DNA of 64,000 nt from Cryptosporangium sp. NPDC048952 (lineage in GTDB: Bacteria > Actinomycetota > Actinomycetes > Mycobacteriales > Cryptosporangiaceae). Every line of letters starts with the position of its first letter. Position 1 is the first letter of the stretch. Under the pieces are notes generated by a model. The model made no database searches. It had not been told where the DNA came from and saw only the letters and a program-made list of their open reading frames with translations. Shown piece by piece: positions 9,116 through 35,407 of the stretch. The DNA is taken from NCBI RefSeq assembly GCF_043197895.1, contig NZ_JBICTY010000010.1, positions 829 to 64,828 of the forward strand, read 5' to 3'. A program made the position numbers and the translations under genes.

Positions 9116-9214
9116 GCACTACGTTTGTGCGCAGTGTCTCCTCATTGACCTCTCAGTCTGCCCTCAGGTCGCCGACGCACTGTTGAGACAGTTGGAACCT
9201 TCGGGGAGGAACCC

Positions 9215-9499: not shown

Positions 9500-9505
9500 G
9501 ACGTC

Positions 9506-18266: not shown

Positions 18267-19031
18267 TTGCGGGATGATCCGGGAATGGATCGCACGCGAA
18301 CCGCAGACCCGACCGCAACAGCGGCGGTGGTGTCGGTGGTGCGCAGAACGATCGAGGAAGCGTTCGACGGTGTGGCCGCGTTACGCCGGGACGTCGAGAG
18401 CATGTTTTCGGGGAGCACCGCCGCCGGTGGTACCGCGGTCGGCCGGGACGATCTCGCCGAGCTGTACCCCACGCTCACCGCCCCACTGCGGACGCCGGGC
18501 GGGCTCGCGAAGGGTGCGGGCTTCGTCGCGGCGCCGCACCTTCTCGTCGACGCGCCGTGGTGGCTGGAGTGGTGGACGCGGGAGCCGTCCGGAGAGCCGA
18601 GCCGCCTGGTCGTCGACGTCGATCCGGACGGCGAGAACTTCTACGACTACACGACGCTGCCCTGGTACCGGGATCCGCAGCGCACCGGGCAGCGGACCGT
18701 CACCGGCCCGTACGTCGACTACCTCTGCACCGACGACTACACGCTCACGTTCACCGCGGCGGTGCGCGACGGGGACGCGTTCCTGGGGGTCGTCGGCAGT
18801 GACCTGGACGTGGGCCTGTTCGAGGCGATCGCACTCCCGTCGCTGCGCGCGGTGCCGTGCACGGCGACGCTGATCAACGCCCACGGGCGGGTGATCGCGT
18901 CGAACTCACCGCAGCGCCGAGGTGGCTCGCTGGTCCGCGACGTGGACGTGGCCGCGCTGTGGGCGAACGGTTCGACGGCGGGAACCCGCCTCGTGCGCTG
19001 CGGGGACTTCCCGATCGGGCTGATGCTCTAA
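18267..19031 (+). CDS. Cache-like (sCache) sensor-domain protein without signal peptide or output domain; TTG start 11 nt after the gntR stop (alternative ATG at 18285)
   Basis: LPWYRDP and YVDYLCTDDYTLTFTAAVRDGDAFLGVVGSDLDV resemble Cache ligand-binding fold. Confidence 0.45.
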   Translation: MRDDPGMDRTRTADPTATAAVVSVVRRTIEEAFDGVAALRRDVESMFSGSTAAGGTAVGRDDLAELYPTLTAPLRTPGGLAKGAGFVAAPHLLVDAPWWLEWWTREPSGEPSRLVVDVDPDGENFYDYTTLPWYRDPQRTGQRTVTGPYVDYLCTDDYTLTFTAAVRDGDAFLGVVGSDLDVGLFEAIALPSLRAVPCTATLINAHGRVIASNSPQRRGGSLVRDVDVAALWANGSTAGTRLVRCGDFPIGLML

Positions 19032-19588
19032 AGACAGGGAGCGTCGCCCGGCCAGCGCTCGGCGAGCACGAGGTGCACGTGCCCGGCCTCGCCCACCTCC
19101 TCGAGCCCGGCGAAGTCGTGCACGACCCGCACGAACCCCTCCGGCACCGCGACCGCCACCGCCGCGAGCAGTTGCGCGCGGGCGTCGTCGGCGGTCGCTG
19201 TGGTTTCGGTGCCATCGAGGGCGGAGAAGAGGTCGGCGGCCAGGCCGAACGGGGCCGGGTCGATGCGGACGCGGTTGCCGGCGCACTCCACGCGCATGCC
19301 GGCGGGTACCCGCGCCCGGTAGTACTCCGCGCAGGCCACCAGCCTCGCGTTCTGCTCGGTCGACGGATCATTCGCTCCGTAGAGCGGCGGTAACAGCTCG
19401 AACCGGATGCCGTCCCAGACGACGCCGTGCCCTTCGAGCGGCACCTGGACCGTCTCGTTCGTCCCGGCGCCGAACCGCTCGTGCACCGCGGCCCGCGCGG
19501 CCGCCAGGTCCGGAACCGGTGCGAGCCGCTCGCCGGTGGCCAGCACCGGCTCCCATCCGTCGTCGGTGCTGCGGTAGGTCACGTCCAC
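19028..19588 (-). CDS. Hypothetical protein
   Basis: Protein-like composition; overlapping antisense frames are Arg/Pro-rich. Confidence 0.45.
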   Translation of the reverse strand: MDVTYRSTDDGWEPVLATGERLAPVPDLAAARAAVHERFGAGTNETVQVPLEGHGVVWDGIRFELLPPLYGANDPSTEQNARLVACAEYYRARVPAGMRVECAGNRVRIDPAPFGLAADLFSALDGTETTATADDARAQLLAAVAVAVPEGFVRVVHDFAGLEEVGEAGHVHLVLAERWPGDAPCL

Positions 19589-19602
19589 GGGGCAATCGTG
19601 CC

Positions 19603-20589
19603 CTAGTGCACGGGCCGCGTGAGGGCCGACAAGATCAGGATGCTCAGGCGACGGGCACGGTCGGGCGTGAAGCCGGCGTCCTCGGCCGCCTCCTCCACGA
19701 TCTGGCCGACGGTGGCCGTACCGAGGCTGCTCAGGTGCGGCAGGTTCGTGGCCGGCCCCTCGGGCAGGCGCCTGCGCGCCGCACCGCGGTTCCGCCGCCA
19801 GCGGGTGACGCCCCCGTGGTGGCGGGTTCCGACGTGCCCGAGGACGCCGGTCGCCGCGCAGGTGAGCATCGCGAGCGAGAGCACGGTGACGAGCTCGGCC
19901 TTCGGCCCCCCGAGCTGCAGCGCGACCGGGTCGTCGCGGCGCGCTCCGGACAGCGCCCAGCGGATCACCCGCCGCTGGAGGATCTCGTCGTCGAAGAAGC
20001 GCTGGACGACGACCGGGAAGCGGGGCATCTCGGCCGGGGCCAGCTCCTGGACGATCATCTCGGCGGCCCCGGCGACCGTGTGCGGCCCGAGGTCCTCCCA
20101 GCGCAGCTCCACCGGCTCGTCGGCCGGAAGGTCCCCGAGGTCGTCCGAGGGGGCGGGCTCGTCGGTCGTGTGCGGCGTTTCCTCGTCGACCGGCTCGTAG
20201 AGCTCCTCCTCGACGTCGGAAGTCTCGTCGTCCGGAGTTTGGTCATCCCAGTACGACGGCGTGCCGTACCCGGTTGCGCGGTACTCCCGACCCGCCGGAC
20301 GAGGCGGCACCTCTCCACGCCAGACGACCTCACCCTCGATCACCGCGGGCGGCCGGTCACCGAACGGGTCGTGCGCCTCGCGGTACGGGTCGAGCACGAA
20401 CCGCGTAGTCGGAGCGTCGTCGTCGTCCGCGTAGTCGAAGAACCCGCGGTACGAGTTCAGCGCGAACCGCGCCGTCGGGGTGTCGTCCTCGGTATACGGA
20501 TCCGGATCCACCCAGAACGCCGCCGTCGGTGCGTCGTCGTCGTCCAGCGCCGCACCCCGGTGGCGTCCGCCGCCGTACGGGTCGGTCAT
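19603..20589 (-). CDS. Hypothetical acidic protein with three N-terminal repeats of DDDAPT-x-RF-x-LDPY
   Basis: Repeat structure plus acidic linker; the opposing 448-aa plus-strand ORF is Arg-rich and judged antisense. Confidence 0.45.
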   Translation of the reverse strand: MTDPYGGGRHRGAALDDDDAPTAAFWVDPDPYTEDDTPTARFALNSYRGFFDYADDDDAPTTRFVLDPYREAHDPFGDRPPAVIEGEVVWRGEVPPRPAGREYRATGYGTPSYWDDQTPDDETSDVEEELYEPVDEETPHTTDEPAPSDDLGDLPADEPVELRWEDLGPHTVAGAAEMIVQELAPAEMPRFPVVVQRFFDDEILQRRVIRWALSGARRDDPVALQLGGPKAELVTVLSLAMLTCAATGVLGHVGTRHHGGVTRWRRNRGAARRRLPEGPATNLPHLSSLGTATVGQIVEEAAEDAGFTPDRARRLSILILSALTRPVH

Positions 20590-20681: not shown

Positions 20682-21254
20682 ATGGACCGGGCCTCTGCGC
20701 AGACCACTTATCTACTGGTCGACGGCGAGAACATCGACGCCACGCTGGGCAGCAACATCTTCGGCGGGCGCCGACCCAGCCCGCAGGAGCGCCCGCGCTG
20801 GGAGCGCGTCCGCGACTTCGCGAGCGAGACCTGGGACCGCCCCGTCAAGGCCCTGTTCTTCCTGAACGCGAGCTCCGGCCAGTTGCCGCTGCCGTTCATC
20901 CAGGCGTTGCTCGCGCTGGACTACCAGCCGATCCCGCTCTCCGGCAGCACCGGTGAAAAGGTCGTCGACATCGGTATCCAGCGGACGCTCGACGCACTGG
21001 TCGACCGCCCCGGCGACGTGCTCCTCGCCAGCCACGACGGCGACTTCTTCGACCAGATCGAGCGTCTCCTCGACGGCAACCGGCGCGTGGGGCTGCTCGG
21101 GTTCCGCGAGTTCGTCAACTCCCGGTTCACCGAGCTGACCGCCGAGGGCCTGGAGATCTACGACCTCGAGGACGACGTCCGCTGCTTCAACGCCCGCCTG
21201 CCGCGCGTCCGCATCATCAATATCGACCGTTTCGACCCGCTCCCGTACCTCTGA
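20682..21254 (+). CDS. NYN-domain (LabA-like PIN nuclease fold) protein
   Basis: YLLVDGENIDATLG...ASHDGDF matches the NYN acidic core. Confidence 0.65.
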   Translation: MDRASAQTTYLLVDGENIDATLGSNIFGGRRPSPQERPRWERVRDFASETWDRPVKALFFLNASSGQLPLPFIQALLALDYQPIPLSGSTGEKVVDIGIQRTLDALVDRPGDVLLASHDGDFFDQIERLLDGNRRVGLLGFREFVNSRFTELTAEGLEIYDLEDDVRCFNARLPRVRIINIDRFDPLPYL

Positions 21255-21348
21255 CGCTGAGTCGTACATAAGACGACTACCTGGCGTTTCTTGAAACGGA
21301 CTGCCACTCTGCTCCCGAGAACGACGGCGAGGAGAGGACAGCGGCCCG

Positions 21349-21960
21349 GTGGGTGGTCTGTTAGATGCGGCCTTCGGATTCCCGGCGGTGCTGTTCACTT
21401 TCGCGCTCGTCGTCGTGGTCGGGTACTGGGTCCTGGTGATCGTCGGCGGCCTCGGCGTCGACGCGCTCGACGGTGACGGCGGCGCGGAGGCAGGTGGCGC
21501 GCACGGTGCTCTCAGCGCCATCGGCCTCGGCGGGGTGCCGGTCAGCGTCTCGCTGTCGGCGCTGATCGGGGTCGCCTGGTTCGGCACGTTCGTGGGGAGC
21601 GCGGTGCTCGGCAACGACGGATTCCTCATCGACGTCGGTCTGCTGGCCGGCGCGCTCGTCGTCGCATGGTTAGCGACCCGGCTGGTGACCCGCCCGTTGC
21701 GTCGATTGTTCCCCGACGAGAAACTGCCGTCCCGATCGGATTTCCTCGGCTCGACGTGCGTGATCCGCACCGGCCGCGTCGACGCGAAATTCGGCCAGGC
21801 GGAAGTGACAGCTGACGATGGATCGTCGGCACTTGTGCAGGTGCGCCAAACTGGCGAGTACGAACTCAGCGCCGGCGAAACAGCGCTGATCTACGACTAC
21901 GACACGGACGGCGAATTCTTCTTCGTCATGCCGTTCAATGCTGCCCACCCCCGGAGCTAG
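21349..21960 (+). CDS. NfeD-like membrane protein (YqiJ/YuaF type; C-terminal OB-fold)
   Basis: Three TM helices then soluble domain VIRTGRVDAKFGQAEV...ALVQVR; 8-nt gap to the flotillin gene. Confidence 0.7.
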   Translation: MGGLLDAAFGFPAVLFTFALVVVVGYWVLVIVGGLGVDALDGDGGAEAGGAHGALSAIGLGGVPVSVSLSALIGVAWFGTFVGSAVLGNDGFLIDVGLLAGALVVAWLATRLVTRPLRRLFPDEKLPSRSDFLGSTCVIRTGRVDAKFGQAEVTADDGSSALVQVRQTGEYELSAGETALIYDYDTDGEFFFVMPFNAAHPRS

Positions 21961-21968
21961 GTAAATCT

Positions 21969-24056
21969 ATGGATGCTGTGGCCCTCGGTGCCGGCGTGCT
22001 GATCGCCGTCGCCTTGATCGTTGTTCTCGGCCTCGCGATAATGGTGAGCCGACTGTTCAAGAAAGTTGAACAGGGCAAGGCCCTGATCGTCTCGAAGGTC
22101 AAAAAGGTCGACGTGACCTTCACCGGCGCGACGGTCATCCCGGTGCTCCACCGCGCCGAGGTCATGGACATCTCGGTGAAGACGATCGAGATCGCCCGTA
22201 CCGGCCGCGAGGGCCTGATCTGCCGCGACAACATCCGGGCGGACATCCGGATCACGTTCTTCGTCCGGGTCAACAAGACCGTCGAGGACGTCATCAAGGT
22301 GGCCCAGGCGATCGGTACGGCACGCGCGAGCAACCAGGACACGCTCCAGGAACTGTTCAACGCGAAGTTCTCCGAAGCGCTCAAAACCGTGGGTAAGCAG
22401 CTCGATTTCGTCGACCTCTACACGAAGCGGAATGAATTCCGCGATCAGATCATCGCGGTCATCGGTACCGACCTCAACGGTTACAGCCTCGAAGACGCCG
22501 CGATCGACTACCTCGAGCAAACGCCGCTGAGCCAACTCGACCCGGCGAACATTCTCGACGCGCAGGGTATTCGCAAGATCACCGAGCTGACCGCGATCGA
22601 GCACGTGCGCACGAACGAATTCCAGCGCACCGAAGAAAAAGAGATCACGCGCCAGAACGTCGACGCCAAGGAAGCAGTTCTCGAGCTGCAGCGCCGGCAG
22701 GCCGACGCCGAGATCAAGCAGCGGCGTGACATCGAGACCAACCGCGCCCGCGAAGAGGCCGAGATCTCCCGCGTCCAGGCGGAGGAGCGGCTCAAGGCGC
22801 AGAAGGCGCACCTGATCACCGACGAAGCGCTCGGCATCCAGAACCAGAACAAGGACCGGGAGATCGCGGTCGCGGAGAAGAACCGTGAGCGTGTCCTGGC
22901 GATCGAGACCGAGCGGATCGAGAAGGACCGCCTGCTCGAGGTCATCGCCCGGGACCGGGAGACGCAGCTCTCCACGATCAACAAGGACAAAGAGGTCGAG
23001 GTCGAGAAGCGCGCGATCGCCGACATCGTCCGGGAGCGCATCGCGGTCGAGAAGACCGTCGCCGAGCAGGAAGAGAACATCAAGAAGCTGCGCGCGGTCG
23101 AAGAGGCCGAGCGGATGCGCCAGACGCTGATCATCCAGGCCGAGGCCGAGGCGCAGGAGAAGCTGGTCAAGGACATCAAGGCAGCCGAGGCCGCCGAGCA
23201 GGCCGCGCAGCACCTGGCCCGCGAGGCGCTGACGCTGGCCGAGTCGCGCCAGCGGGCCGCCGAGCTCGACGCCGCCGCGAAGATCCGGCTCGCCGAGGCG
23301 ATCAAGGCCGAGGCCGCCGCGCCGGGCCTGGCCGCGGTGCAGGTCCGCGAGGCCGAGGCCGACGCGATCGAGAAGAGCGGTCTCGCCGAGGCGGTCGCCG
23401 ACCGCGAGAAGGGCCTGGCCCAGGCGCTCGTCGCGAAGGAGAAGGGCCTCGCGGAGGCCGCCATCGCGAAGGAGAAGGGCCTCGCCGAGGCCGAGGCGCT
23501 GCGCGAGAAGCTGAAGGGCGAGGCCGAAGGTCTCACCGACAAGGCCGCCGCGATGGCCGCCCTCGACGACGCCACCCGCCAGCACGAGGAGTACCGACTG
23601 CGCCTCGAGGCCCAGAAGGAGATCCAGCTGGCGAACATCGACGTCCAGCGGCAGATCGCCGAGGCGCAGGCCTCGGTGCTCTCCACCGGCCTGCAGAACG
23701 CCGACATCGACATCGTCGGTGGCGACACCGTGTTCTTCGACCGGCTGATGAGCTCGATCGCGTTCGGCAAGGGCGTCGACAAGTTCGTGGAGCACTCCGA
23801 GGTGGCCGGCACGCTGACCAAGCCCTGGCTGGACGGGTCGGCGAGCTTTACCGACGACCTGAGCCGGATCCTCGGGTCGGTGGACTCCGCCGACATCCGC
23901 AACCTGACGATCTCCGCACTGTTGATGAAGATGATCAAGGGCGGCGGCCCGGACTCCGCGAAGCTCGGTGAGCTGCTCGGCTCGGCCCGCCAGCTCGGCA
24001 TCGCCGACACCCCGCTGTCCCAGCTGACCGCCCTGAACGGCGTCACGAAGGCGTGA
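21969..24056 (+). CDS. floT: Flotillin-family protein (SPFH/band-7 domain plus long EA-rich coiled coil; YqiK/FloT-like)
   Basis: N-terminal TM; SPFH core (GKALIVSKVKKVDVTFTGATVIPVLHRAEVMDISVKTIEI); extended A/E/K-rich coiled coil; C-terminal flotillin tail. Confidence 0.85.
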   Translation: MDAVALGAGVLIAVALIVVLGLAIMVSRLFKKVEQGKALIVSKVKKVDVTFTGATVIPVLHRAEVMDISVKTIEIARTGREGLICRDNIRADIRITFFVRVNKTVEDVIKVAQAIGTARASNQDTLQELFNAKFSEALKTVGKQLDFVDLYTKRNEFRDQIIAVIGTDLNGYSLEDAAIDYLEQTPLSQLDPANILDAQGIRKITELTAIEHVRTNEFQRTEEKEITRQNVDAKEAVLELQRRQADAEIKQRRDIETNRAREEAEISRVQAEERLKAQKAHLITDEALGIQNQNKDREIAVAEKNRERVLAIETERIEKDRLLEVIARDRETQLSTINKDKEVEVEKRAIADIVRERIAVEKTVAEQEENIKKLRAVEEAERMRQTLIIQAEAEAQEKLVKDIKAAEAAEQAAQHLAREALTLAESRQRAAELDAAAKIRLAEAIKAEAAAPGLAAVQVREAEADAIEKSGLAEAVADREKGLAQALVAKEKGLAEAAIAKEKGLAEAEALREKLKGEAEGLTDKAAAMAALDDATRQHEEYRLRLEAQKEIQLANIDVQRQIAEAQASVLSTGLQNADIDIVGGDTVFFDRLMSSIAFGKGVDKFVEHSEVAGTLTKPWLDGSASFTDDLSRILGSVDSADIRNLTISALLMKMIKGGGPDSAKLGELLGSARQLGIADTPLSQLTALNGVTKA

Positions 24057-27000
24057 CCGGCCCCCTGACCGCCGGCGGCGCGGAGGCCAGCGCCGCCGGC
24101 ACGACCGCCGCCGGCCCGGCGGGCGTGGGCGGCGGGCCGGCTGACGTACCAGCCGGCCCGGCCACGCCCGGGCTCGATGCGGGCACCTACGACGTCCTCC
24201 GGAGCCGCCTGAAGACGCAGGCAACGGAGCTGGCGCAGCACGTCGAGGCGCTCAACACGCAGCGGCTCGACGTCTTCGGCGGCACCGAACTACGCCTCAC
24301 CGGCACCGCGCAGATCCGCACCGAGCACAACTGCGTCCCGCGCGACATCACGTCGGTCGGCGACCGGCTGCTCTTCGGCTACAACGCCTACCTGGGCATG
24401 AAGCCGGAGACGACGGTCGACGACGTGTTCTCCGTGCACCGCCTGGTACGCGACAACGACCGGCTCAGCTTCGAGCAACTCGAGCACGACCCGCTCCTCA
24501 CCGACGAGCAGTTCACCAAGGACCTCGGCGAGCAGTACCGGTATTTCCGGGAGAGCTCGCTGCTGCAGCTGCGCCGGCTCGACCCGCTGCTGCTCGCGGT
24601 GTTCCGCACCAGCCCGAACGCCGACGACAACCGCGTGCTCCGCTGGCGCCTCAACCTGGACGGCACGGCGAACTACGTCGACAACAAGGGCGAACGGGAC
24701 CACACGTTCCCCGCCAAGCAGGACTTCGACTGGGTCGAGACCACCCGCACCGACCACGTCCTCGGCCGGCACCCGCACATCTCGATCCTCGGCGTGGTGT
24801 TCGTCGAGACGATCGGCGGCGACCTCACGATCAAGGTCGAGAACAACACCGAGTCCGGCGAGGGCATCTACACCGAGCCGGTCAAGGAACCGCTGCAGAG
24901 CCTCGCCGACGCCGACGTCAGCTACGCCCGCATCGGCCCCCTGATCCTGCTCCGGATCCGTCCGTACAAAGAGGACGCCTGGCGCTACCTGATCTTCAAC
25001 ACGCTCACCCGCGACGTCCTGCGGCTGGACGGCATCGGGCAGGCCTGCCAGCGCCTGCCCGAGGACCAGGGCATCGTCGTGCCCGGCGGCTACTACCTGT
25101 CGACAGGCGTCCACCGCGTTTTCGACCAGGACACTTCCGGCCTGGAGTTCGAGCGTGTCATCCGCTCGACGAACGGCGAGGACGTCCTCTACGTCTTCCA
25201 CAGCCGGACCGACGGCCGCTACCTGCTGCTCCCGTACAACGTCATCCGCAAGGAGATCGCGAACCCGATCCCCTGCCACGGTTACGCGTTCTACGACGAC
25301 GGCACGCTGGTCGTGCTGCGCGCCACGAACGCCGAGCCGACTCGCGTCCACCAGATGCAGGTGTGGCAGACGCCGTACGTGTCGGACACGTACGCAGCAG
25401 CGCAGCCGGTGGGCACCGGACCGCTGGAGCGGATCGGCAACGCCGATCTGGTCCGCGGGATCTCCGACCTGCTGTCGGTCGCCCGGATGGCCGAGGACAC
25501 GACGCCCACCGAAGCGGCGTTCGACGCGCTGATCGGCGCCTGCCGCCGCGCCGTCGACCAGTACCACTGGCTCGACGAGAACGGCCTGGGTACCCCGCTC
25601 GCGCAGCTGCGGCGCACCGCCGAGCAGGTCCGCGAGGAGTTCGAGAAGGTCCAGAGCCTCACCGCGCAGGCCGCGGACGCGCTCGCCGCCGCTGTCGCCG
25701 AGGTCGGCACGCTGATCCGGGACGCGCGGACGGGTTCGCCGACCACGGCAGAGGAGTGGGCCGCCCAGCTCGCCGCGCTGCGCCGGGCGCAGGGTCGGCT
25801 GGTCGGGCTGCGCGAGGTCCGGTACGTCGACCAGACCGCCGTCGACGCACTCGCCGCGGAACTGACCGACGAGCTCGCGGCCGCCGGCCGCCGGGCGGTC
25901 GAGTTCCTCCGCGGCGAGGGTGCTTTCGACAGCTACGAACAACAAGCCGAACTGCTCACTGCCGACGCCGACGCGATCGCGTCCGTGGCGGAGGCGGCAC
26001 CGCTGGCCGAACGGCTCGACCAGCAGTCCGACGGGCTGGCCGTCGTCACCGAGGTCCTCACGTCGCTGGACATCGAGGACGCGACCGTCCGCACCGAGCT
26101 GCTCGCCCGCATCGGCGGTGTGCTCGGCAGCATCAACCGCGCCCGGGCGACGCTCGACGCGCGGCGCCGCGAGCTGCTCGCGGTGGAGGGACGTGCCCAG
26201 TTCGCGGCGGAGTTCGCGCTGCTCGGGCAGGCAGTGACCGGTGGACTGGCGGTCGCCGACTCCCCCGAGGCGTGCGACGAGCAGCTCGCGAAGCTGATGG
26301 CTCAGGTCGAAGGGCTCGAGTCCCGGTTCGGGCAGTTCGACGAGTTCCTCGCGTCGCTCGCGGAGAAGCGCGAGGACGTCTACGAGGCGTTCTCGGCGCG
26401 GAAGCAGGCGCTGCTCGACGACCGGCAGCGGCGGGCGAACCGGTTGGCTGCGAGTGCCGACCGGATCCTCGGCAGCGTGCAGCGCCGGGCCGTTCAGCTG
26501 GCCACACTCGAGGACGTCAACACGTACTTCGCGACCGACCCGATGGTCGGCACGCTGCGCGGCCTGATCGGCGAGCTGCGGACGCTCGGCGACGCGATCC
26601 GCGCGGAGGAGTTCGAGCGGCGGCTGTCGACCGCGCGTCAGGAGGCCGGGCGGGCGCTGCGGGACCGCACCGACCTGTACGACGGCGACACGATCCGGCT
26701 CGGACGGCACCGGTTCGCGGTGAACACGCAGGCAGCTGAGCTGACGCTCGTGCCGCACGAGGGCAAACCGGTGTTCGCGATCACCGGCACCGACTACCGC
26801 GCCCCGGTCACCGACCCGACGTTCGCGTCCACCGCCGAGTTCTGGGACCAGCCCCTGGTCTCCGAAGACGCCACCCTCAGCCGCGTGGAGTACCTGGCCG
26901 GCACCCTCCTCCTCTCGGGTGTTCGTGACCCTGCACAGGTGCAGACCGCTGCTGCCGAGCGGTACGAGGAGGGGTACGAGCGCGGCGTCCACGATGCGGA

Positions 27001-28933
27001 TGCGGCGGTGGTTCTCGGCGCGCTGGTCGAGCTGTACGACGAGGCCGGGCTGCTCCGGTACTCGCCCGGGGCGCGGGCGGCGGCGCAGCTGTTCTGGGCG
27101 TACGGCGTCGAGGACCGGAAACAGTGGGAGGTGCGCGCCCGGTCGCTGACCCGCGCGAACGAGATCTTCGGGGCGGGCGACGGGCTCGAAGCGCTGACCG
27201 CCGAGCTCGCGGCCGAGATGACCGAGGCCGAGCAGCCGCTGCTCGCAGCGGAATACCTCATCGCCGAGCTCGCGCACGAACCGTTCGGGTTCGTCACCGG
27301 CCCCCGGGCGGCGGAACTGGTGGCCGGCTTCGAACGAGCCCTCGGCCCCAACGCGTCCACTCTGGAAGACGACCTCAAGGAGCTCGGCGACGACGTCACC
27401 GCCCGGCACCGGCTGATCAACGCGTGGATGTCGGCCTACTCGCCCGAAGCCACCGAGGACCGCGACGAGGCCGTCGCGTACCTGCTCATCGGCGACGACG
27501 TCCCCCGCCGCGACTCCGCCGCGCAGCTCGAAGCCACCGTCGACGGCCTCCTGTCGGCACACCCCCGCATCACCGGCCGGACGCTGACCGTGCGCCTCGA
27601 CGACGTACTGGCCCGCGTCCGCCGATTCCAGGACGTCCGCGTCCCGGCGTTCCGCGCCTACCAGAAGCAGCGCGGCACCGTGATCGCGGAAGAACGCGCC
27701 CGGCTCCGCCTCAACGAGCTCGAAGCAGGGGTGCTCAGCTCGTTCGTCCGCAACCGCCTCATCGACCAGGTCTACCTCCCGCTGATCGGCGACAACCTCG
27801 CCAAGCAGCTCGGCACCGTGGGCCCGGACTCACGCACCGACCAGATGGGGTTGCTGCTCCTGCTGTCCCCACCCGGCTATGGCAAGACGACGCTGATGGA
27901 GTACGTCGCGTCCCGGCTCGGCCTGGTCTTCGTCAAGGTCAACGGCCCGGCGCTGGGCCACGACGTGACGTCGCTCGACCCGGAGCAGGCACCGAACGCG
28001 GCCGCGCGGCGCGAGGTCGAGAAGATCACGTTCGCGTTGGAGCTGGGGAACAACACACTGCTCTATCTGGACGACATCCAGCACACGTCGCCCGAGCTGC
28101 TCCAGAAGTTCATTTCCCTGTGTGACGCGACCCGCCGGATGGACGGGGCCAGCAAGACGTACGACCTGCGTGGTAAGCGCTTCGCGGTGTGCATGGCCGG
28201 CAACCCGTACACCGAGTCGGGGCAGCGGTTCCAGGTGCCGGACATGCTGGCCAACCGAGCCGACGTCTGGAACCTCGGTGACGTGCTGTCCGGGCGCGAG
28301 GAGCTGTTCGCGCTGAGCTTCCTGGAGAACACGCTGACGTCGAACCCGGTGCTCGCGCCGCTCTCGACCGGTGCGCCGGCCGACGTCGAGCTGCTGGTGC
28401 GGCTGGCGCGCGGGGACGCCACGGTGCGGCCGGACCAGTTGGAGAAGACGTACTCGTCCGTGGAGCTGGAGCAGATCCTGGCCGTGCTGCGTCACCTGCT
28501 GCGCGTGCAACATGTGGTTCTACGGAACAACGAGGCGTACATCGCGTCGGCGGCGCAGGCGGATTCGTCGCGTACCGAGCCGCCGTACCGGCTGCAGGGT
28601 TCGTACCGGAACATGAACAAGATGGCGCAGCGGGTGCTGCCGGTGATGAACGACGCCGAGCTCGAGGCCGTGATCGACGACCACTACGTCGGGGAGGCCC
28701 AGACGCTCGCGGCGGACGCCGAGGCGAACCTGCTGAAGCTGGCGGAGCTGCGGGGTGTGCTCACTCCGGAGGCATCCGCCCGCTGGTCCGCCGTGAAGGA
28801 AGGGTTCCTCCGCGAGCGGGCGCTGGGCGGCTCCGACGACCCCCTGGGCCGGGCGGTCGGCGCCGTGGGCCTACTCGCGGATCGGGTCCGGGAGGTCGAG
28901 CAGGCCATCGTCCGACTTGGTCCGCGCTCGTAG
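24053..28933 (+). CDS. Giant (1626 aa) protein with a C-proximal AAA+ ATPase domain of MoxR/AAA_5 type, flotillin-associated
   Basis: Start overlaps the flotillin stop. Walker A LLLSPPGYGKTTLMEY; Walker B LLYLDDIQHT; sensor-1-like CMAGNPYTE; about 1200 aa of mostly helical upstream sequence. Confidence 0.75.
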   Translation: MTGPLTAGGAEASAAGTTAAGPAGVGGGPADVPAGPATPGLDAGTYDVLRSRLKTQATELAQHVEALNTQRLDVFGGTELRLTGTAQIRTEHNCVPRDITSVGDRLLFGYNAYLGMKPETTVDDVFSVHRLVRDNDRLSFEQLEHDPLLTDEQFTKDLGEQYRYFRESSLLQLRRLDPLLLAVFRTSPNADDNRVLRWRLNLDGTANYVDNKGERDHTFPAKQDFDWVETTRTDHVLGRHPHISILGVVFVETIGGDLTIKVENNTESGEGIYTEPVKEPLQSLADADVSYARIGPLILLRIRPYKEDAWRYLIFNTLTRDVLRLDGIGQACQRLPEDQGIVVPGGYYLSTGVHRVFDQDTSGLEFERVIRSTNGEDVLYVFHSRTDGRYLLLPYNVIRKEIANPIPCHGYAFYDDGTLVVLRATNAEPTRVHQMQVWQTPYVSDTYAAAQPVGTGPLERIGNADLVRGISDLLSVARMAEDTTPTEAAFDALIGACRRAVDQYHWLDENGLGTPLAQLRRTAEQVREEFEKVQSLTAQAADALAAAVAEVGTLIRDARTGSPTTAEEWAAQLAALRRAQGRLVGLREVRYVDQTAVDALAAELTDELAAAGRRAVEFLRGEGAFDSYEQQAELLTADADAIASVAEAAPLAERLDQQSDGLAVVTEVLTSLDIEDATVRTELLARIGGVLGSINRARATLDARRRELLAVEGRAQFAAEFALLGQAVTGGLAVADSPEACDEQLAKLMAQVEGLESRFGQFDEFLASLAEKREDVYEAFSARKQALLDDRQRRANRLAASADRILGSVQRRAVQLATLEDVNTYFATDPMVGTLRGLIGELRTLGDAIRAEEFERRLSTARQEAGRALRDRTDLYDGDTIRLGRHRFAVNTQAAELTLVPHEGKPVFAITGTDYRAPVTDPTFASTAEFWDQPLVSEDATLSRVEYLAGTLLLSGVRDPAQVQTAAAERYEEGYERGVHDADAAVVLGALVELYDEAGLLRYSPGARAAAQLFWAYGVEDRKQWEVRARSLTRANEIFGAGDGLEALTAELAAEMTEAEQPLLAAEYLIAELAHEPFGFVTGPRAAELVAGFERALGPNASTLEDDLKELGDDVTARHRLINAWMSAYSPEATEDRDEAVAYLLIGDDVPRRDSAAQLEATVDGLLSAHPRITGRTLTVRLDDVLARVRRFQDVRVPAFRAYQKQRGTVIAEERARLRLNELEAGVLSSFVRNRLIDQVYLPLIGDNLAKQLGTVGPDSRTDQMGLLLLLSPPGYGKTTLMEYVASRLGLVFVKVNGPALGHDVTSLDPEQAPNAAARREVEKITFALELGNNTLLYLDDIQHTSPELLQKFISLCDATRRMDGASKTYDLRGKRFAVCMAGNPYTESGQRFQVPDMLANRADVWNLGDVLSGREELFALSFLENTLTSNPVLAPLSTGAPADVELLVRLARGDATVRPDQLEKTYSSVELEQILAVLRHLLRVQHVVLRNNEAYIASAAQADSSRTEPPYRLQGSYRNMNKMAQRVLPVMNDAELEAVIDDHYVGEAQTLAADAEANLLKLAELRGVLTPEASARWSAVKEGFLRERALGGSDDPLGRAVGAVGLLADRVREVEQAIVRLGPRS

Positions 28934-29521
28934 CGTCCGAATGCCCAACAGGAGCAGGACGACGGCGAGCAGGCCGACGATCACGTAGCCGCCGAGCGTG
29001 AACGTCTTCTCGAACTGGCGGGCGGCGGAGCCGAGCGCGGCGCCGATGCCGACGTGCAGCGCGGACCAGCTCGCCGCACCGAGGGCAGCGGCGGGGAGGA
29101 AGCGCGGGAGCGGAAGGCCCGCGCTGCCCGCCGCGGCGGGTCCCAACGCACGCACCGCGGGCAGGAAGCGGATGAAGAACACCGCCAGCGGGCCGCGCCG
29201 CTGCAGGGTCGCCGCGGCGCGGTCCCAGAGCACCGCCCCGTACCGGCGGATCAACCGCGTCTCTCGCAGGCGCGGCCCGTACCGACGCCCGATCGTGTAC
29301 CCGATCGCATCACCGAGGATCGCGCACACCGTGACCACCGCCCACAGCGCGACGAACCGCCCGGGTCCGTTCACCGTCGTCGCGGCGACGAGCAGACTCG
29401 ACTCACCGGGCACGATCAGCCCGAGCCCGAGCGTGCACTCGCCCAGCACGAGCAGCCCCGCCACGGCGATGACCGCGAGCGGCGGCAACGATTGAAGCCA
29501 GTCCAGGATGTCGGTGACCAT
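28871..29521 (-). CDS. dedA: DedA/SNARE-associated family membrane protein
   Basis: GLIVPGESSLL...LGDAIGYTIGRRYG motifs; 63-nt convergent overlap with the giant ATPase gene. Confidence 0.75.
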   Translation of the reverse strand: MVTDILDWLQSLPPLAVIAVAGLLVLGECTLGLGLIVPGESSLLVAATTVNGPGRFVALWAVVTVCAILGDAIGYTIGRRYGPRLRETRLIRRYGAVLWDRAAATLQRRGPLAVFFIRFLPAVRALGPAAAGSAGLPLPRFLPAAALGAASWSALHVGIGAALGSAARQFEKTFTLGGYVIVGLLAVVLLLLGIRTLRARTKSDDGLLDLPDPIRE

Positions 29522-29631: not shown

Positions 29632-30654
29632 ATGCGTCCCTGGAACACCGAAATGGCTGGTCAGCTGCATCGCGACACGATCGAATCGAACCTGCTCAGG
29701 GGTAATCCCCTGGGTGATCCCCACGAGCGTCCACTGTGGGTCTACACGCCGCCGGGCTACTCGTCGGACACGCCCTTGCCGGTCGTGTACGTGATTCAGG
29801 GCTACACCGGCCAGATCGACATGTGGAACAACCGCTCGCCGTACCGGCAGACGTTCCCGGAGAACGTCGACGCACTGTTCGCCTCGGGTGAGACGCCCGG
29901 GTGCATCGTCGTCTTCGTGGACGCGTGGACCACGTACGGCGGCTCCCAGTTCGTGGACTCCCCCGGCACCGGGCCGTACCACTCGTACCTCTGCGACGAG
30001 GTCGTGCCGTGGGTCGACGCCCGGTACGCGACGCTGGCGCGCCCGGAGTCGCGGGCGATCAGCGGCAAGTCGTCGGGCGGGTTCGGGGCGATGATCACGC
30101 CGATGCTGCGCCCGGACCTGTTCGGCGCGCTCGCCACGCACGCGGGCGACGCCCTCTACGAGTACTGCTACGTGAGCGGATTCGCGAAGGCGGTGCGGCT
30201 CCTCCGTGAGTACGACGGGGACATCCAGCGGTGGTGGGCCGATTTCCAGTCGCGGACGTCGTTCACGAAGGAGGCCGACGGCGAATTGCTGATCCTGCTC
30301 GGCTGCACCGCCTGCTTCTCCGCCGACGAGGACGGCACCCCGCAGCTGCCGTTCGACCCGATCACCGGCGTGCTGATCCCGGAGCGCTGGCAGCGATGGC
30401 TGGACTGGGACCCGGTGCGGATGATCGACACGTACGCCGACGCGCTGCTGTCGCAACGCTCGATCTGGATCGACGCCGGCACCCGCGACGAGTGGTACCT
30501 CGACCTCGGCGCCCAAGCGTTCCACGCGGGCCTCAAGCGGATCGGCGTCCCCGACGACCGCATCCACTTCGAGCTCTTCGACGCCACCCACGGCGGCATC
30601 GACTACCGCTACCCCCAGGCCCTCAAATGGCTGGCCGAACGCCTGGAACGCTAG
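29632..30654 (+). CDS. Esterase-family alpha/beta hydrolase (enterochelin-esterase / PF00756-like)
   Basis: PLPVVYVIQGYTGQ...AISGKSSGGFGA (GxSxG nucleophile elbow). Confidence 0.65.
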   Translation: MRPWNTEMAGQLHRDTIESNLLRGNPLGDPHERPLWVYTPPGYSSDTPLPVVYVIQGYTGQIDMWNNRSPYRQTFPENVDALFASGETPGCIVVFVDAWTTYGGSQFVDSPGTGPYHSYLCDEVVPWVDARYATLARPESRAISGKSSGGFGAMITPMLRPDLFGALATHAGDALYEYCYVSGFAKAVRLLREYDGDIQRWWADFQSRTSFTKEADGELLILLGCTACFSADEDGTPQLPFDPITGVLIPERWQRWLDWDPVRMIDTYADALLSQRSIWIDAGTRDEWYLDLGAQAFHAGLKRIGVPDDRIHFELFDATHGGIDYRYPQALKWLAERLER

Positions 30655-32804
30655 GCGGGCTCGAGGCGGTAGATGGTGATCTGGCCGGCGCGGTAGTAGA
30701 CCGACCAGTGGGGTGAGGCGTCGAGGGCCGCGCGCAGCGCCTCGACCGAGCCGCGGGGCAGGTTGCCGAAGTACTCGGCGGTTCGCTGCATCAGCGGTGT
30801 GATCACCAGGAACGTCTCCGTGCCGCCGTACGACGCCGCCCAGCTCTCGATCGCCGGGAGCTGGTCGGCGTCGAGCACGAGGTGTTTGAACGACGGCTCG
30901 TCGGTGATCGACGGGTCGACGCTGCGGCCCGGGTTGAGGTCGCCGTAGTCCGCCGTGAGCCGCGCCGGGAACGCGGGCGCGAGCATCGTCATCGTCGACC
31001 CGGCGGGGGCCTGCGTCTCGAGGTAGCGCGCCGCCCGGATGTCGGCCGGCGGGACGACGTGCAGCGCGTACTGTCCCTGCAACCCCTGCAGCGCCGCTAT
31101 CGCGAGCAGCGCGAACACCACGCCGGAAGCAATACCCCAGCGCCGCGACCCCGCCCACCACGACGCGGCGAGCATCGCGCACCACGGCACCGAGAACAGG
31201 TACACCCGGTAGATCGCCTCACCGCCGTAGCTCTGCAGGAACAGCAGCAGGAACGGCGTGAACCCGAGCGCGAACGGGATGACGATCCGCCCGAGCCCAC
31301 GGCGGTGCCGCCACCCGACGACCAGCGCCGCGAGCCAGACCGCCACCGACAGCCCCCGGGCGACGAGCGCCGAGAACTCCTGCGCCCGGGTCCCCCACCC
31401 GCTCGTCGTGCCGGACGCGTTCTTGAACAGGTCGAACCCGTCGAACAGGTTGTACTGACTTTCGACCCCGCCCATCCGCGGCAGGAAATACCCACCCGCG
31501 ATCGCGGCCAGCGCGATCACCAGCCAGTTCGGTCGGATCAGACCGACGATCGTCAGTACGCCGACGCCGAACAGCAGCAGGTACGGGGTGAGCTGGTGCG
31601 CCGCGGTGATCGCCGCGAACACCAGCGCCACGACGACGAGCACCGGCCACCGCGGCCGGTCCCGTACCGGCGGGGCGTCGCGCACGAGCAGCTGACGCAG
31701 CCGGTTGAGCCGTCCGGCGGCCCGCGACCCGGGCAGCCCCCGGCAGCCGTGCATCAGCAGCGCGAAGAACCCCAGGCTCAGGGCGTACGCGTAGGCCTGC
31801 GGGGAGAAGTAGTTCTGGTCGACCCAGAGCGAGCAGACGAACAGGAACACCGCGAGGTACACGGCCCGGACGTCCCGGTTCAGTCCCCGCACGATCGCGG
31901 CGATCAACAGCGCGTCGATCAGCCCGAAGTACGGCGTCGACCAGCCCACGAACCGGATCGACGCCACCCCGGCGACACTGGAGAGCTGCGCGGTGGCGGC
32001 GAACAGCGCCGGCCAGCGCTGGTAGATGTCGTCCGGGTCGACGACCTGGCCGTAGCGCTGGACGAGCTCGACGACGCCGACGTGCTTGTACACCCACGGG
32101 TACTCGGGCACCGGCACGAGCAGCGGCGCGGTCGCCCACACCAGCAGTCCCATCGCCCCGATGCCGGCGAGCAGCACGAGCGTGCGGGCCCGCCCGAACA
32201 GCTCGATGCCGAACCCGACCCCCACCATTCCGATCGCGGCGACGAACGGAACTCCCAGGCCCCACGTCAGACCGAACTCGGTGATCCCGTTCGGGTCGGC
32301 CCGCAGCACGGTGACCAGCCACAGCCCCAGCGCGACGACGAACAGCGTCGGGGTGAGCACGGGAGCCACCCCCGTGGGCGGCGCGTCCGTGCCGACCCGG
32401 TCGAGGACGTCGGTCCGGCCCATCACGTCCGGCCTGCGTAGCCGGGCCAGCGCGACAGCTGCCGTCAAAGCCAGCAGTGCGGCGGTCGCCGCGAACGGGT
32501 GCCACGCCCGGAACCACACCATCGACGCCGCGCTCAGCCCGGTGAGCGCCAGGCTGAACGTGATCGTGAGCGCGCTCGCCACTACCTGGTCGGCGATCCG
32601 CAGGTGGCTGACGATCGCGGCGCCGGGGCCGGCCGTGAAGAACGCCAGCAGCAGCACCAGCCGGATCGGCCCGTCCGGGATCAGCAGCGCGACGGTCCCG
32701 GCCACCACTGTTGCCACGGCGACCGCCGCCAGCCCGGTTTCGGACGTCGGGGTGCCGAGTGCGGTGCTGCCGCGGGGCACCGACGAGAGCAGACGGACGG
32801 TCAC
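30651..32804 (-). CDS. 717-aa polytopic membrane protein, candidate GT-C-type glycosyltransferase or polymerase of the adjacent glycan cluster
   Basis: About 16 predicted TM helices with a large C-terminal soluble domain; GTG start; 18 nt downstream of the flippase gene. Confidence 0.55.
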   Translation of the reverse strand: MTVRLLSSVPRGSTALGTPTSETGLAAVAVATVVAGTVALLIPDGPIRLVLLLAFFTAGPGAAIVSHLRIADQVVASALTITFSLALTGLSAASMVWFRAWHPFAATAALLALTAAVALARLRRPDVMGRTDVLDRVGTDAPPTGVAPVLTPTLFVVALGLWLVTVLRADPNGITEFGLTWGLGVPFVAAIGMVGVGFGIELFGRARTLVLLAGIGAMGLLVWATAPLLVPVPEYPWVYKHVGVVELVQRYGQVVDPDDIYQRWPALFAATAQLSSVAGVASIRFVGWSTPYFGLIDALLIAAIVRGLNRDVRAVYLAVFLFVCSLWVDQNYFSPQAYAYALSLGFFALLMHGCRGLPGSRAAGRLNRLRQLLVRDAPPVRDRPRWPVLVVVALVFAAITAAHQLTPYLLLFGVGVLTIVGLIRPNWLVIALAAIAGGYFLPRMGGVESQYNLFDGFDLFKNASGTTSGWGTRAQEFSALVARGLSVAVWLAALVVGWRHRRGLGRIVIPFALGFTPFLLLFLQSYGGEAIYRVYLFSVPWCAMLAASWWAGSRRWGIASGVVFALLAIAALQGLQGQYALHVVPPADIRAARYLETQAPAGSTMTMLAPAFPARLTADYGDLNPGRSVDPSITDEPSFKHLVLDADQLPAIESWAASYGGTETFLVITPLMQRTAEYFGNLPRGSVEALRAALDASPHWSVYYRAGQITIYRLEPA

Positions 32805-32822
32805 CCAGTCATTCTGTACCTA

Positions 32823-34010
32823 TTACTGCAACAAAGTCCGGATTCGGATCACCAGCCCGGGCAGCAGGACCGCCGCCGTCAGCGCCTGTGCGCCGACATA
32901 CGCCAGTCCGACGCCCGGCAGCCCCAGCCGTGGCAGGAGCACCACCGCACCACCGAGGAACACGACAGCGGTGACGGCCTGGACGAACACGGCCGGCCAG
33001 AGCCGGTTCACCAGGATCGCCAGCGCGCAGTAGACGATGACAACAGCGGTGAACGGAAAGCTCAGCGCCGCCACCCGCAGCAGCGTGCCGCCGCCGTCCG
33101 CGAATGCCGTGCCCTGCACGAGCAGCAGCGTCGGGCCGAGCACCACCAGGCCGAGCGTGCCGGCGACCGCGACCGCCGTCACCAGGCCGAGGATCCGGCG
33201 CAGGTGGTGGGCCAGGCCGTCCGGGTCGCGGCCGACCTGGGCGATGAACGACATCATGATGTTCCAGACCAGCGTCTGCAGCGTGATGACGATCAGCCAC
33301 GGCACCGCGAAGTAGGCGTTGGCCACCGAGCCGGCCACGTGCACGACCAGCACCGGCGGGATCAGCGTGACGACGTTGCCGACCAGGTTGTTGACGTACT
33401 CCGCGGCCACGAAGTTGCCCAGCTGCCGCGGGCCGGGCAACTGCGATTCGCCGACGCTGCGCGCCGGGGCGAGGCGAGCGAAGATCACGAACGTGAGCAC
33501 GACGGCCGCGACCGCCGCGGGAATGCACCAGGCGGCCTCGATGCCCAGCTCGGAGCCGGTGGCGACCAGCGCCACGAGCAGTACGAGCTTGGCGCTGGAG
33601 GTCGCCACCTGCTTGGCCACGACCGTGCCGGCCCGGCCGAACGCGGTGAGCACGCCGTCCTGCACGTAGAAGAGCGCGTAGACGGTCACGCCGAGCACGA
33701 AGCCGAGCCAGTCCCAGCGTCCGAGGCCGAAGCCGTGGCCCGGGCCGAGCAGCAGGTAGGTGCCGCCGAACAGCACCGAGCCGGCGAGGATCCCGGCGAA
33801 GCCGGAGCCCAGGAACGCACCTGTGCGGTGCCCCGCCTGGGGCAGGAACCGCACGAACACCGACGAGAGGTTGAGCTGCGCGATCCCGCTGACCAGTGCG
33901 ATCGCCGAGACGGTCGCGTTGCCGTGCCCGACCTCGTCGGTCGGGTACAGGTGTGCGGCGGCGACCCAGAAAAGCATGTTCAACGCCGACGCCAGCACTG
34001 TCGACGACAT
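32823..34010 (-). CDS. Wzx-like polysaccharide flippase (polysaccharide-biosynthesis-protein family)
   Basis: 12-14 TM helices, N-terminus LRQASALMSSTVLASALNMLFWVAAAHLY typical of PF01943/PF13440. Start set at the internal ATG (ORF opens at 34163 but would overlap the GT2 gene). Confidence 0.6.
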   Translation of the reverse strand: MSSTVLASALNMLFWVAAAHLYPTDEVGHGNATVSAIALVSGIAQLNLSSVFVRFLPQAGHRTGAFLGSGFAGILAGSVLFGGTYLLLGPGHGFGLGRWDWLGFVLGVTVYALFYVQDGVLTAFGRAGTVVAKQVATSSAKLVLLVALVATGSELGIEAAWCIPAAVAAVVLTFVIFARLAPARSVGESQLPGPRQLGNFVAAEYVNNLVGNVVTLIPPVLVVHVAGSVANAYFAVPWLIVITLQTLVWNIMMSFIAQVGRDPDGLAHHLRRILGLVTAVAVAGTLGLVVLGPTLLLVQGTAFADGGGTLLRVAALSFPFTAVVIVYCALAILVNRLWPAVFVQAVTAVVFLGGAVVLLPRLGLPGVGLAYVGAQALTAAVLLPGLVIRIRTLLQ

Positions 34011-34087
34011 CAGCGCCGACGCTTGACGCAGCACCGTGGACGACCTCCACCTGGACACCGCACTCCGAGCTACGGGAGGGGCGATCG

Positions 34088-35407
34088 TCACCGGAGACCG
34101 ACCGGGGTCTTCGTGGCCGCACCAGCCGGCGCGGAGGCCCGCAGTCCTCGGAGGTAACGCCACGGGCCGGCGAGCATGCCTCGCCGGTTCGCGGCGAACA
34201 GCTCGGTCGGGAAGTCCTTCCGGACCGTGCCGACCCGGACGCTGTCGTTGCTCGTCAGGTCCTTCACCGCGGTCGGCACCAGCCGGAGCAGCCGCACGAG
34301 CCGACGCGGGTCGTCCCGGATCAGCGCGGCGTAGAACGCGGTGAGCCCGGCGCCGTACCCGGCCATCTGCGTGCGGAGCCCGTCGAGGTCGGCACGGTGC
34401 ACGTGACGCACCAGCGCCGCCGGGTGGTAAAGCGTGGTCGCCCCGAGGTCGAGCAGCCGGCTGAAGATCAGCGTGTCCTCGCCGCTCTGCGCGGGTGTAC
34501 CGGCACCGAGTGCCTCGTCGAACCCTTTCAACGTGCGCAGGGCGTGCAGACGGAACGCCATGTTGGCCCCGACGCCGAACGCCGGCAGCGGGTAGAGCGG
34601 GCTCTGGGCGGTGTGCGGCCCGAACTCGTCGGGAAGGAACCCGCGGCCCTTGCTGTGGCCGCCGAACTGCTCGAACCAGGCCTGGGCGTCGGTGCGGAGC
34701 TCGGCCGGGACGACGACACCGGACACCGCGACAGCGGCCGGGTTGTCCCCGAAAGCACGGACGATCTCGGCGACCCAGTGCGGGTCGGCGCGGACGTCGT
34801 CGTCGGTCCAGGCGACGATCCGCTCACCGGGTTCGCGGCTCAGCGCGGCGATCGCGGCGTTCCGGGCCCGCGACAGCCCGGGTCGCGCCTCGGCGACGTA
34901 CTCGATCGTCAACCGACCGCGGAACTCCTCGACCACGTGACGCGTGCGGTCGCCGACCGGCGCGTTGTCGACCACCAGGACGTCGAAGCGGTCGAACTCC
35001 TGGTCGGTGAGGCTGATCAGGCAGTCACGCAGCTCGTCGGGGTGCTCCCGGGTGCAGATGACGACGGTGACCGGCGGGGCCAGCTCCAGCGCGCGGGCCC
35101 GCCCGGCCAGGAACGGCGGGGTCGCGGCCAGCGCCGAGAGCGGAATGCCGTCCGGCGTCAGCATGGCGACGTCGATCCGCGCCGCGATCGCATTCCGGCA
35201 CTCCGCCAGGATGCCGTCGAGCAGCGCGGCCGGGCTCAACTCGTCGTCCGACGGCAGGTCCAGCCGCACCATCGCGAGCGGCTCGGTGAACAGCCGGACG
35301 ATCACCCAGGCCGCCTCACGCCGGTGCCCGAGCGTGTCGAAGACGTGGACCGACGGCAGCGGAGCGGACAGCTCGACGTCCAGCACGACGCCGGGGATGC
35401 GACTCAT
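34088..35407 (-). CDS. Family 2 glycosyltransferase
   Basis: VTVVICTREHPDELRDCLISL...VLVVDNAPVGD...WTDDDV (GT-A DxD). Confidence 0.75.
   Translation of the reverse strand: MSRIPGVVLDVELSAPLPSVHVFDTLGHRREAAWVIVRLFTEPLAMVRLDLPSDDELSPAALLDGILAECRNAIAARIDVAMLTPDGIPLSALAATPPFLAGRARALELAPPVTVVICTREHPDELRDCLISLTDQEFDRFDVLVVDNAPVGDRTRHVVEEFRGRLTIEYVAEARPGLSRARNAAIAALSREPGERIVAWTDDDVRADPHWVAEIVRAFGDNPAAVAVSGVVVPAELRTDAQAWFEQFGGHSKGRGFLPDEFGPHTAQSPLYPLPAFGVGANMAFRLHALRTLKGFDEALGAGTPAQSGEDTLIFSRLLDLGATTLYHPAALVRHVHRADLDGLRTQMAGYGAGLTAFYAALIRDDPRRLVRLLRLVPTAVKDLTSNDSVRVGTVRKDFPTELFAANRRGMLAGPWRYLRGLRASAPAGAATKTPVGLR

Follow-up and report, generated by a model that had tools for sequence, protein, structure and literature searches.

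Why should a flotillin gene be followed almost without a gap by a gene encoding an ATPase of 1626 amino acids (aa), and do the two belong to a machine of a new kind? The question is raised by a locus of Cryptosporangium sp. NPDC048952 that lies within a 64,000-nucleotide (nt) stretch of high-GC DNA (approximately 70% G+C throughout; contig NZ_JBICTY010000010.1, positions 829 to 64,828; hereafter the window). Here the genes for a small NfeD-like membrane protein, a flotillin, and the giant ATPase are arranged in series on the plus strand and are preceded by a gene encoding a NYN-domain protein. An initial annotation, made from the sequence alone, regarded the set as a module that had not been characterized and suggested that it could serve in membrane remodeling or in stress or defense. 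In this study, the linkage between the flotillin and ATPase genes was found to be far beyond chance, and the YqiJ-like protein, the flotillin, and the giant ATPase very probably constitute one functional module. The module is not undescribed, because its gene order and domain architectures had already been tabulated by Ravi et al. 2024 (mSystems, PMC11237479). Our literature searches retrieved no experimental characterization of the module and nothing relevant on flotillin together with MoxR or on YqiK/AAA+/propeller combinations. Thus, the view that the module is uncharacterized holds with respect to experiment but not with respect to comparative genomics: the module of the window is of a catalogued, experimentally uncharacterized kind, and the locus adds no new category.

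Linkage of the flotillin and ATPase genes across phyla

A scan of one genome per species gave at least 590 related loci; the best 80 of them, together with 8 further loci obtained by protein look-ups, make up the set of 88 analyzed here. In all 84 loci with upstream DNA, a flotillin orthologue directly precedes the ATPase gene on its strand; the remaining four have less than 400 nt of DNA upstream. Spacing was likewise similar, with the flotillin stop codon and the first conserved ATPase codon separated by a median of 124 nt in the set and by 131 nt in the window. The linkage was detected in at least five phyla, with representatives in the Actinomycetota, Myxococcota, Acidobacteriota, and Gammaproteobacteria and in a metagenome-assembled genome (MAG) of the Clostridia. 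Included among the loci are those of Streptomyces, Nocardia, Nonomuraea, Micromonospora, Myxococcus, and Corallococcus, of Acidobacteriota, of delta-proteobacterial and Clostridia MAGs, of the gammaproteobacteria Methylomarinum and Thalassomonas, and of two metagenomic contigs. The pairing seen in the window, for which the initial annotation had proposed a survey of gene neighborhoods, is therefore kept in relatives. Further upstream, a hidden Markov model (HMM) of the family located the YqiJ-like gene directly 5′ of the flotillin gene in 67 of the related loci. No other flanking gene was found to be conserved across the 88-locus set by reference-based tblastn; instead, the flanks comprise genes of ordinary metabolism and transport, and these vary between genera. 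The ATPase itself is conserved at about 65% across orders and about 50% across phyla, and homologues down to 26% identity retain its full-length architecture (approximately 1600 to 1900 aa). The family to which it belongs, DUF3686, is large, with more than 6000 clusters matched at 90% identity and 1320 clusters at 50% identity (E ≤ 1e-3).

Two additional genes were observed near the module in the streptomycete loci. A PucR-type regulator (GGDEF_2 and HTH_30 domains) is encoded near the module in 31 Streptomycetaceae loci (Streptomyces and Embleya), mostly divergent and upstream (e.g., locus L058, 3309-4394, minus strand; locus L045, 2317-3375), and is a candidate local regulator of the module in the Streptomycetaceae; 12 of these genomes lack the YqiJ-like gene. 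The divergent gene at 19603-20589 of the window was considered as a counterpart of this regulator and rejected, leaving no counterpart in the window. In 12 Streptomyces loci, the gene that directly follows the ATPase gene encodes a 666-aa protein with TrkA_N domains (e.g., L045, 12047-14047, plus strand).

Gene layout in the window

The module comprises the genes of the YqiJ/YuaF-type (NfeD-like) small membrane protein (21349-21960, 203 aa), the flotillin, a YqiK-like SPFH protein (21969-24056, 695 aa), and the giant cytosolic ATPase of the DUF3686 family (24053-28933, 1626 aa as the longest open reading frame [ORF]), and is preceded by the NYN-domain gene (20682-21254, 190 aa). All four ORFs are on the plus strand and were recovered at exactly the positions called in the initial annotation; three of the four have a coding-type third-position G+C content (GC3) of 0.92 to 0.93, typical of genes in this genome. 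When read as the longest ORF, the giant gene begins at a GTG codon (position 24053) that overlaps the TGA stop of the flotillin gene as GTGA, an arrangement earlier taken to indicate translational coupling. The identical 4-nt overlap was called by gene callers in two other Cryptosporangium genomes. However, the NCBI model of the giant protein (P0001, from Cryptosporangium sp. NPDC048952), which is 100% identical to the window protein, is 1602 aa long and starts 72 nt downstream, at the GTG of position 24125. Translational coupling of the flotillin and ATPase genes is thus plausible, not certain, because of this later start; under either start the gap between the two genes is at most 68 nt. Scans of the window for Rfam families and tRNAs were empty.

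At its other end, the giant gene (stop at 28933) meets a convergent gene of the VTT/DedA family (28871-29521, minus strand), and the two overlap at their 3′ ends by 63 nt (28871-28933). The giant gene and the VTT/DedA gene are separated by a GH18 glycosyl-hydrolase gene in C. aurantiacum and C. minutisporangium (L088, 10858-12003; L089, 11030-12172), and this gene seems to have been lost in the window.

The flotillin and the YqiJ-like membrane protein

The 695-aa protein was confirmed as a flotillin by three features: a match to Pfam Band_7 (E-value 8e-8), homology to YqiK of Escherichia coli, and an N-terminal transmembrane (TM) helix. When compared by BLASTP, the window protein and E. coli YqiK were 28% identical over 463 aa that span the SPFH domain and coiled coil (E-value 1e-38). 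From its TM helix (aa 8-26), the protein continues through an SPFH/Band-7 domain (aa 32-175) and a long coiled coil rich in Ala and Glu to a C-terminal region; no sequence match to it was found in the PDB. The SPFH domain of the window flotillin is 62% to 81% identical to that of proteobacterial and acidobacterial orthologues linked to the giant gene. Compared with the 28% identity to E. coli YqiK, these values indicate that the flotillins linked to the giant ATPase are a separate, slowly evolving, and more conserved subgroup.

The gene immediately 5′ of the flotillin gene had been annotated as NfeD. Its 203-aa product had no match in Pfam or NCBIfam, and none to the Pfam NfeD/YqiJ models even at an E-value of 10. 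Hydropathy and an alignment of 16 orthologues revealed three TM helices (aa 14-32, ~57-87, and 91-109), followed by a β-rich soluble domain at the C terminus (aa ~125-200). A profile of the 16 orthologues was colinear with E. coli YqiJ in an alignment that was weak (hhalign probability 47%, E-value 1.9e-4, 145 columns), and two of the 16 touched Pfam YqiJ_N (E-value 0.007). YqiJ and YuaF were treated as NfeD homologues by Hinderhofer et al. 2009 (PMC2636767). Thus, a YqiJ/YuaF-type, NfeD-like designation is a fair label that rests mainly on architecture and position: the three TM helices, the β domain, and the colinear YqiJ alignment speak for the NfeD annotation, but it has no family match behind it and the sequence support is modest to weak.

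Domains, fold, and active site of the giant ATPase

A MoxR/AAA_5-type ATPase had been thought to be the only recognizable domain of the giant protein. This proved incorrect, as two Pfam families, both of unknown function, match it strongly: (i) DUF3686 at aa 59-505 (24227-25567, plus strand; E-value 3.9e-208), which is described in Pfam as "ATPase involved in DNA repair"; and (ii) DUF7902 at aa 624-707 (25922-26173, plus strand; E-value 1.5e-27). Partial matches to Pfam AAA and AAA_5 were located around aa 1268-1387, with AAA_5 scoring 21.4 bits, just under the Pfam gathering cut-off of 22. When the PDB was searched by sequence, the single protein and a family profile both gave P-loop similarity only, and the only NCBIfam matches were sub-threshold and to the P-loop of RuvB/CDC48. 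No TM segment was detected by hydropathy in the giant protein, unlike in both of its membrane-protein partners. Literature searches found no paper on DUF3686, PF12458, or DUF7902. The possibility that the giant protein belongs to a well-characterized family unrelated to flotillin, raised at the outset, was not borne out.

The fold of the giant protein was examined with two AlphaFold2 models (aa 40-720 and aa 700-1626) built from a 56-sequence alignment, with predicted local distance difference test (pLDDT) scores of 90.4 and 88.9, respectively. In these models, an N-terminal helix (aa ~45-75), inside which DUF3686 starts, is followed by a domain of ~28 β-strands (aa ~81-439), a helical-bundle arm with two small β insertions (aa ~445-1220) that includes DUF7902, an AAA+ α/β domain with its lid (aa ~1225-1530; 27725-28642, plus strand), and a C-terminal tail (aa ~1531-1626; 28643-28930, plus strand) that is predicted to be helical and has conserved residues. 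The N-terminal β domain was matched to propellers by Foldseek (E-value 6e-7) at TM-scores of only 0.2 to 0.4, and as modeled it resembles a propeller of non-canonical form. The closest folds to the modeled AAA+ module were those of CbbQ and NorQ, which are MoxR remodeling ATPases, and also dynein and midasin. By the fold of the model, the module is assigned to the MoxR/AAA_5 class, which agrees with the initial call even though the AAA_5 match is sub-threshold. An assignment to the classical AAA proteins, suggested by the PDB sequence matches, was dropped after the fold search; the features of that class (Cdc48/FtsH/Vps4) that were looked for, i.e., a full-length Pfam AAA match, an aromatic pore loop, and a paired-Arg second region of homology, were not found.

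Active-site motifs were located in the AAA+ module, including Walker A (GYGKT, aa 1275-1279, nt 27875-27889), Walker B (LYLDD, within the wider motif LYLDDIQH; D1340-D1341, nt 28070-28075), the sensor-1 residue N1384, a candidate Arg finger (R1402), and the segment QGSYRNMNK (aa 1515-1523). Walker A, the Asp-Asp pair of Walker B, N1384, R1402, and QGSYRNMNK were invariant in 22 sequences down to ~30% identity. This invariance argues that the ATPase activity of the giant protein is under selection.

PspA and the long form of the operon

Ravi et al. 2024 (PMC11237479) described an operon that joins CesT/Tir-PspA with YqiJ/YuaF, a Band-7/flotillin protein, and a β-propeller/coiled-coil/AAA+ protein, along with "related abbreviated operons" of flotillin and YqiJ/YuaF, sometimes with the ATPase, that are widely distributed. 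In the Dokdonia entry of their Table S3, YqiJ-YuaF is followed by a Band-7, coiled-coil, and flotillin protein and then by a β-propeller, coiled-coil, and AAA-ATPase protein. These authors propose that the operon acts in sub-membrane assembly or remodeling. The long form, which adds DUF2170/CesT and PspA, was recovered here in two homologous loci and in two different arrangements relative to the triad: in Methylomarinum (L084), the genes of DUF2170 (CesT/Tir-like, YjfI type) and PspA precede the triad, whereas in a distant metagenomic locus (L086) the DUF2170-PspA pair is downstream of the ATPase gene. The pair is absent from all actinobacterial loci of the set. A search of the window for homologues of PspA, DUF2170, and the Zn-ribbon protein was negative. 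Since the window does not carry the CesT-like/PspA pair, it represents the abbreviated form of the operon.

A Zn_ribbon_TFIIB protein of ~182 aa was observed with the module in two Gammaproteobacteria (L084, 7243-7791, plus strand; L085, 4269-4820, minus strand). Its gene is located between the flotillin and ATPase genes in Methylomarinum and is divergent and upstream in Thalassomonas. The protein recalls the Zn-ribbon protein YdjG of the Bacillus subtilis pspA-ydjGHI operon (PMC9239133).

The NYN gene and other regions of the window

The 190-aa product of the gene preceding the module matches Pfam NYN above the gathering score (E-value 2.3e-6), so the initial annotation was right about its presence and its fold. 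Its association with the module is narrow. A NYN gene was found upstream of the module in two of the 88 other loci, both from Cryptosporangium (L088, 2578-3150; L089, 2436-3008), and was absent from the other 86; with the window included, all three Cryptosporangium loci have it. The gap between the NYN and YqiJ-like genes is 94, 104, and 248 nt across these three loci. The NYN gene is an unrelated neighbor, adjacent only within the genus by ordinary synteny, and is not part of the module. A simple scan of the gap between the NYN gene and the module revealed no terminator or convincing promoter, and the NYN gene may therefore be co-transcribed with the module in Cryptosporangium.

Three further regions of the window were noted. 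Upstream of the NYN gene and divergent from it are two co-oriented genes (19028-20589, minus strand) encoding proteins of 186 and 328 aa that have no Pfam match. Two large adjoining genes with a strong coding signal (30651-34163, minus strand), encoding proteins of 717 and 446 aa, also have no Pfam match; the pair is upstream of a family-2 glycosyltransferase gene (34088-35407), and the 717-aa gene has syntenic orthologues in the other Cryptosporangium loci. Finally, a region of ~4.3 kb (5160-9500) is of lower G+C content (~0.675) and has no ORF with coding-type GC3; its longest ORFs had no Pfam match when tested, and no Rfam family or tRNA was found in it.

Proposed function and alternatives

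Overall, the best explanation of these findings is probably a three-gene membrane module that uses ATP to remodel the flotillin assembly, or the clients of this assembly, under membrane stress. Rings of the MoxR, midasin, and dynein class carry out mechanical remodeling of protein complexes, and SPFH proteins form cages at membranes; the proposal is made because of these two properties. In the mechanism envisioned, which draws on the solved structures of SPFH assemblies, the YqiJ-like protein and flotillin would build a cage or dome at the cytoplasmic side of the membrane, while the ATPase would oligomerize via its AAA+ ring and use its propeller and helical arms to reach the flotillin assembly. 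Hydrolysis of ATP would then (i) assemble, remodel or open, or dismantle the flotillin/YqiJ scaffold; or (ii) handle proteins held in the scaffold. This action may be part of a membrane-integrity stress response of the PspA type. That the module acts in membrane or flotillin remodeling or in envelope stress is likely; this part of the initial suggestion fits the PspA-linked versions of the operon but rests on inference. The narrower proposal that the flotillin cage itself is the direct substrate of the ATPase is tentative and less likely than not to our reading. Somewhat more doubtful still is a specific form of it, in which the DUF3686 protein would be a dedicated, ATP-driven remodeler of flotillin cages, with a MoxR ring and six long, propeller-tipped arms that dock on the cytoplasmic flotillin/YqiJ dome. 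If the latter is true, the remodeler would open, disassemble, or reshape the dome as a bacterial counterpart to Vps4 on ESCRT-III, would provide the first example of an SPFH scaffold that has a motor of its own, and would explain the energy input for some PspA systems without a Vps4-like ATPase.

Several points weigh against a remodeling module of this kind. First, physical interaction among the members, and the function of any of them, is predicted only. Second, the Walker B motif ends in Asp-Asp, not Asp-Glu, and this substitution could make for slow, switch-like hydrolysis rather than a motor. Third, no aromatic pore-loop motif was evident when the sequence between Walker A and Walker B was read by eye, which makes the threading of substrates doubtful. 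Fourth, MoxR ATPases, which are ~270 to 500 aa in length, are normally paired with a VWA-domain partner, and the Pfam results for the module and its flanks contain no VWA domain. Fifth, linkage to PspA was observed in only two of the 88 loci, and the window has no PspA gene. Sixth, the YqiJ-like gene is missing, and hence dispensable, in 12 Streptomyces loci as judged by the family HMM. In addition, at least 590 loci were detected and only the best 80 kept, which biases the set toward the Actinomycetes.

A serious alternative, though an unlikely one, is that the ATPase is a MoxR-type chaperone that matures, inserts, or extracts another membrane protein or complex, with the flotillin/YqiJ scaffold serving only to concentrate this client. 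The closest folds, CbbQ and NorQ, belong to proteins that activate or mature other enzymes, and the propeller and helical arms could bind clients. Flotillins are, moreover, widely described as platforms or chaperones for clients (PMC11222466; PMC11237479). However, no candidate client gene is conserved beside the module, and the VWA adaptor is absent. Furthermore, the coupling of the ATPase to one slowly evolving flotillin subgroup is strict (84/84), and this strictness indicates a direct relationship between ATPase and flotillin.

Evidence from the NYN gene and from conservation bears on a second alternative, an anti-phage or conflict system in which the ATPase would trigger membrane disruption and the NYN nuclease would act as the effector. 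The window does place a large ATPase with repeat domains beside a nuclease-fold gene, and PADLOC returned weak matches to IetA (E-value 0.0015) and NYN (E-value 0.0026). These matches, from a comparison of all four proteins with the defense-system models, are non-significant and cover only P-loop or partial regions, and the NYN gene is limited to one genus. Moreover, the ATPase is highly conserved across orders and phyla, unlike fast-evolving defense genes, and its flanks are of the housekeeping type and variable between genera. A defense role, included in the initial suggestion, is thus largely refuted and very improbable. The least probable reading, that of a DNA-repair ATPase, is unsupported, as it draws on names only (the Pfam description of DUF3686 and the NCBI product name "DNA repair ATPase") and on weak RuvB P-loop matches (E-value 4e-4; 19 bits against a curated cut-off of 282 bits), while sequence and fold searches detected no domain of the DNA-binding, nuclease, or helicase type, membrane-protein genes always accompany the gene, no repair gene is conserved nearby, and no paper mentioning DUF3686 or PF12458 was found.

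The remodeling of a flotillin assembly or its clients, which we favor over these alternatives, has several implications. The role of bacterial flotillins is unsettled, and the subgroup described here is always encoded with a very large and highly conserved ATPase. If this ATPase acts on the flotillin assembly, it would make the building, opening, or recycling of SPFH cages accessible to genetics and biochemistry, and would link flotillin to membrane repair of the PspA type. With regard to annotation, "DNA repair ATPase" is a misleading label that is carried on thousands of genomes, including those of Streptomyces, Nocardia, Myxococcus, and marine Gammaproteobacteria, and should be corrected.

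Comparison with known systems

The nearest relatives of the first two genes are the yqiJ-yqiK pair of E. coli and the yuaF-floT pair of B. subtilis, in which a small NfeD-like gene is likewise located immediately upstream of a gene for a flotillin with TM, SPFH, and coiled-coil regions. The likening of the window pair to yqiJ-yqiK in the initial annotation is well founded for the homologous YqiK; for YqiJ the correspondence is colinear and weak. In E. coli, unlike in the window, yqiK is not followed by an ATPase gene. The window flotillin is also ~140 aa longer than flotillins of the yqiJ-yqiK/yuaF-floT type and falls outside them in its own subgroup.

With the MoxR ATPases of the AAA_5 family (CbbQ, NorQ, and RavA), the giant protein shares the AAA+ core fold of the MoxR/dynein/midasin type. 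It differs from them in its length of 1626 aa, of which ~1200 aa are extra N-terminal domains, in its DD Walker B and sub-threshold AAA_5 score, and in having no VWA partner. At the level of how a system works, an SPFH scaffold is coupled to an AAA+ machine at the membrane in HflK/C-FtsH, prohibitin/m-AAA protease, and erlin/p97, and the likeness of the window module to these is an analogy only. As cited in PMC13086221 and PMC11920096, the AAA+ protease FtsH is enclosed by cages of HflK/C, QmcA and YbbJ make up an SPFH-NfeD cage, and flotillin assembles into a dome. In contrast to FtsH, the window ATPase has neither a protease domain nor a TM anchor, and its AAA+ clade is MoxR-like, not classical. 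The two scaffolds also face opposite ways, with the soluble part of flotillin being cytoplasmic and that of HflK/C periplasmic.

The closest correspondence is to the operon of Ravi et al. 2024. In gene order and architectures, the window matches this operon, of which the neighborhood of Dokdonia donghaensis ANH61663.1 is an example, and has its short form without PspA: the first gene encodes a YqiJ/YuaF-type protein with three TM helices (with modest sequence support), the second a flotillin with TM and Band-7 regions, and the third a propeller-like/helical/AAA+ protein. Relative to the operon as described, the window is without the CesT-like/PspA pair and the phospholipase D and Zn-ribbon genes. 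The work of Ravi et al., which is computational throughout, names neither a Pfam family nor a clade for the ATPase and offers no structure; to it the present analysis adds the MoxR-class assignment of the ATPase, as predicted from its modeled fold, the non-canonical propeller of its N-terminal region, likewise from the model, and the count of linked loci.

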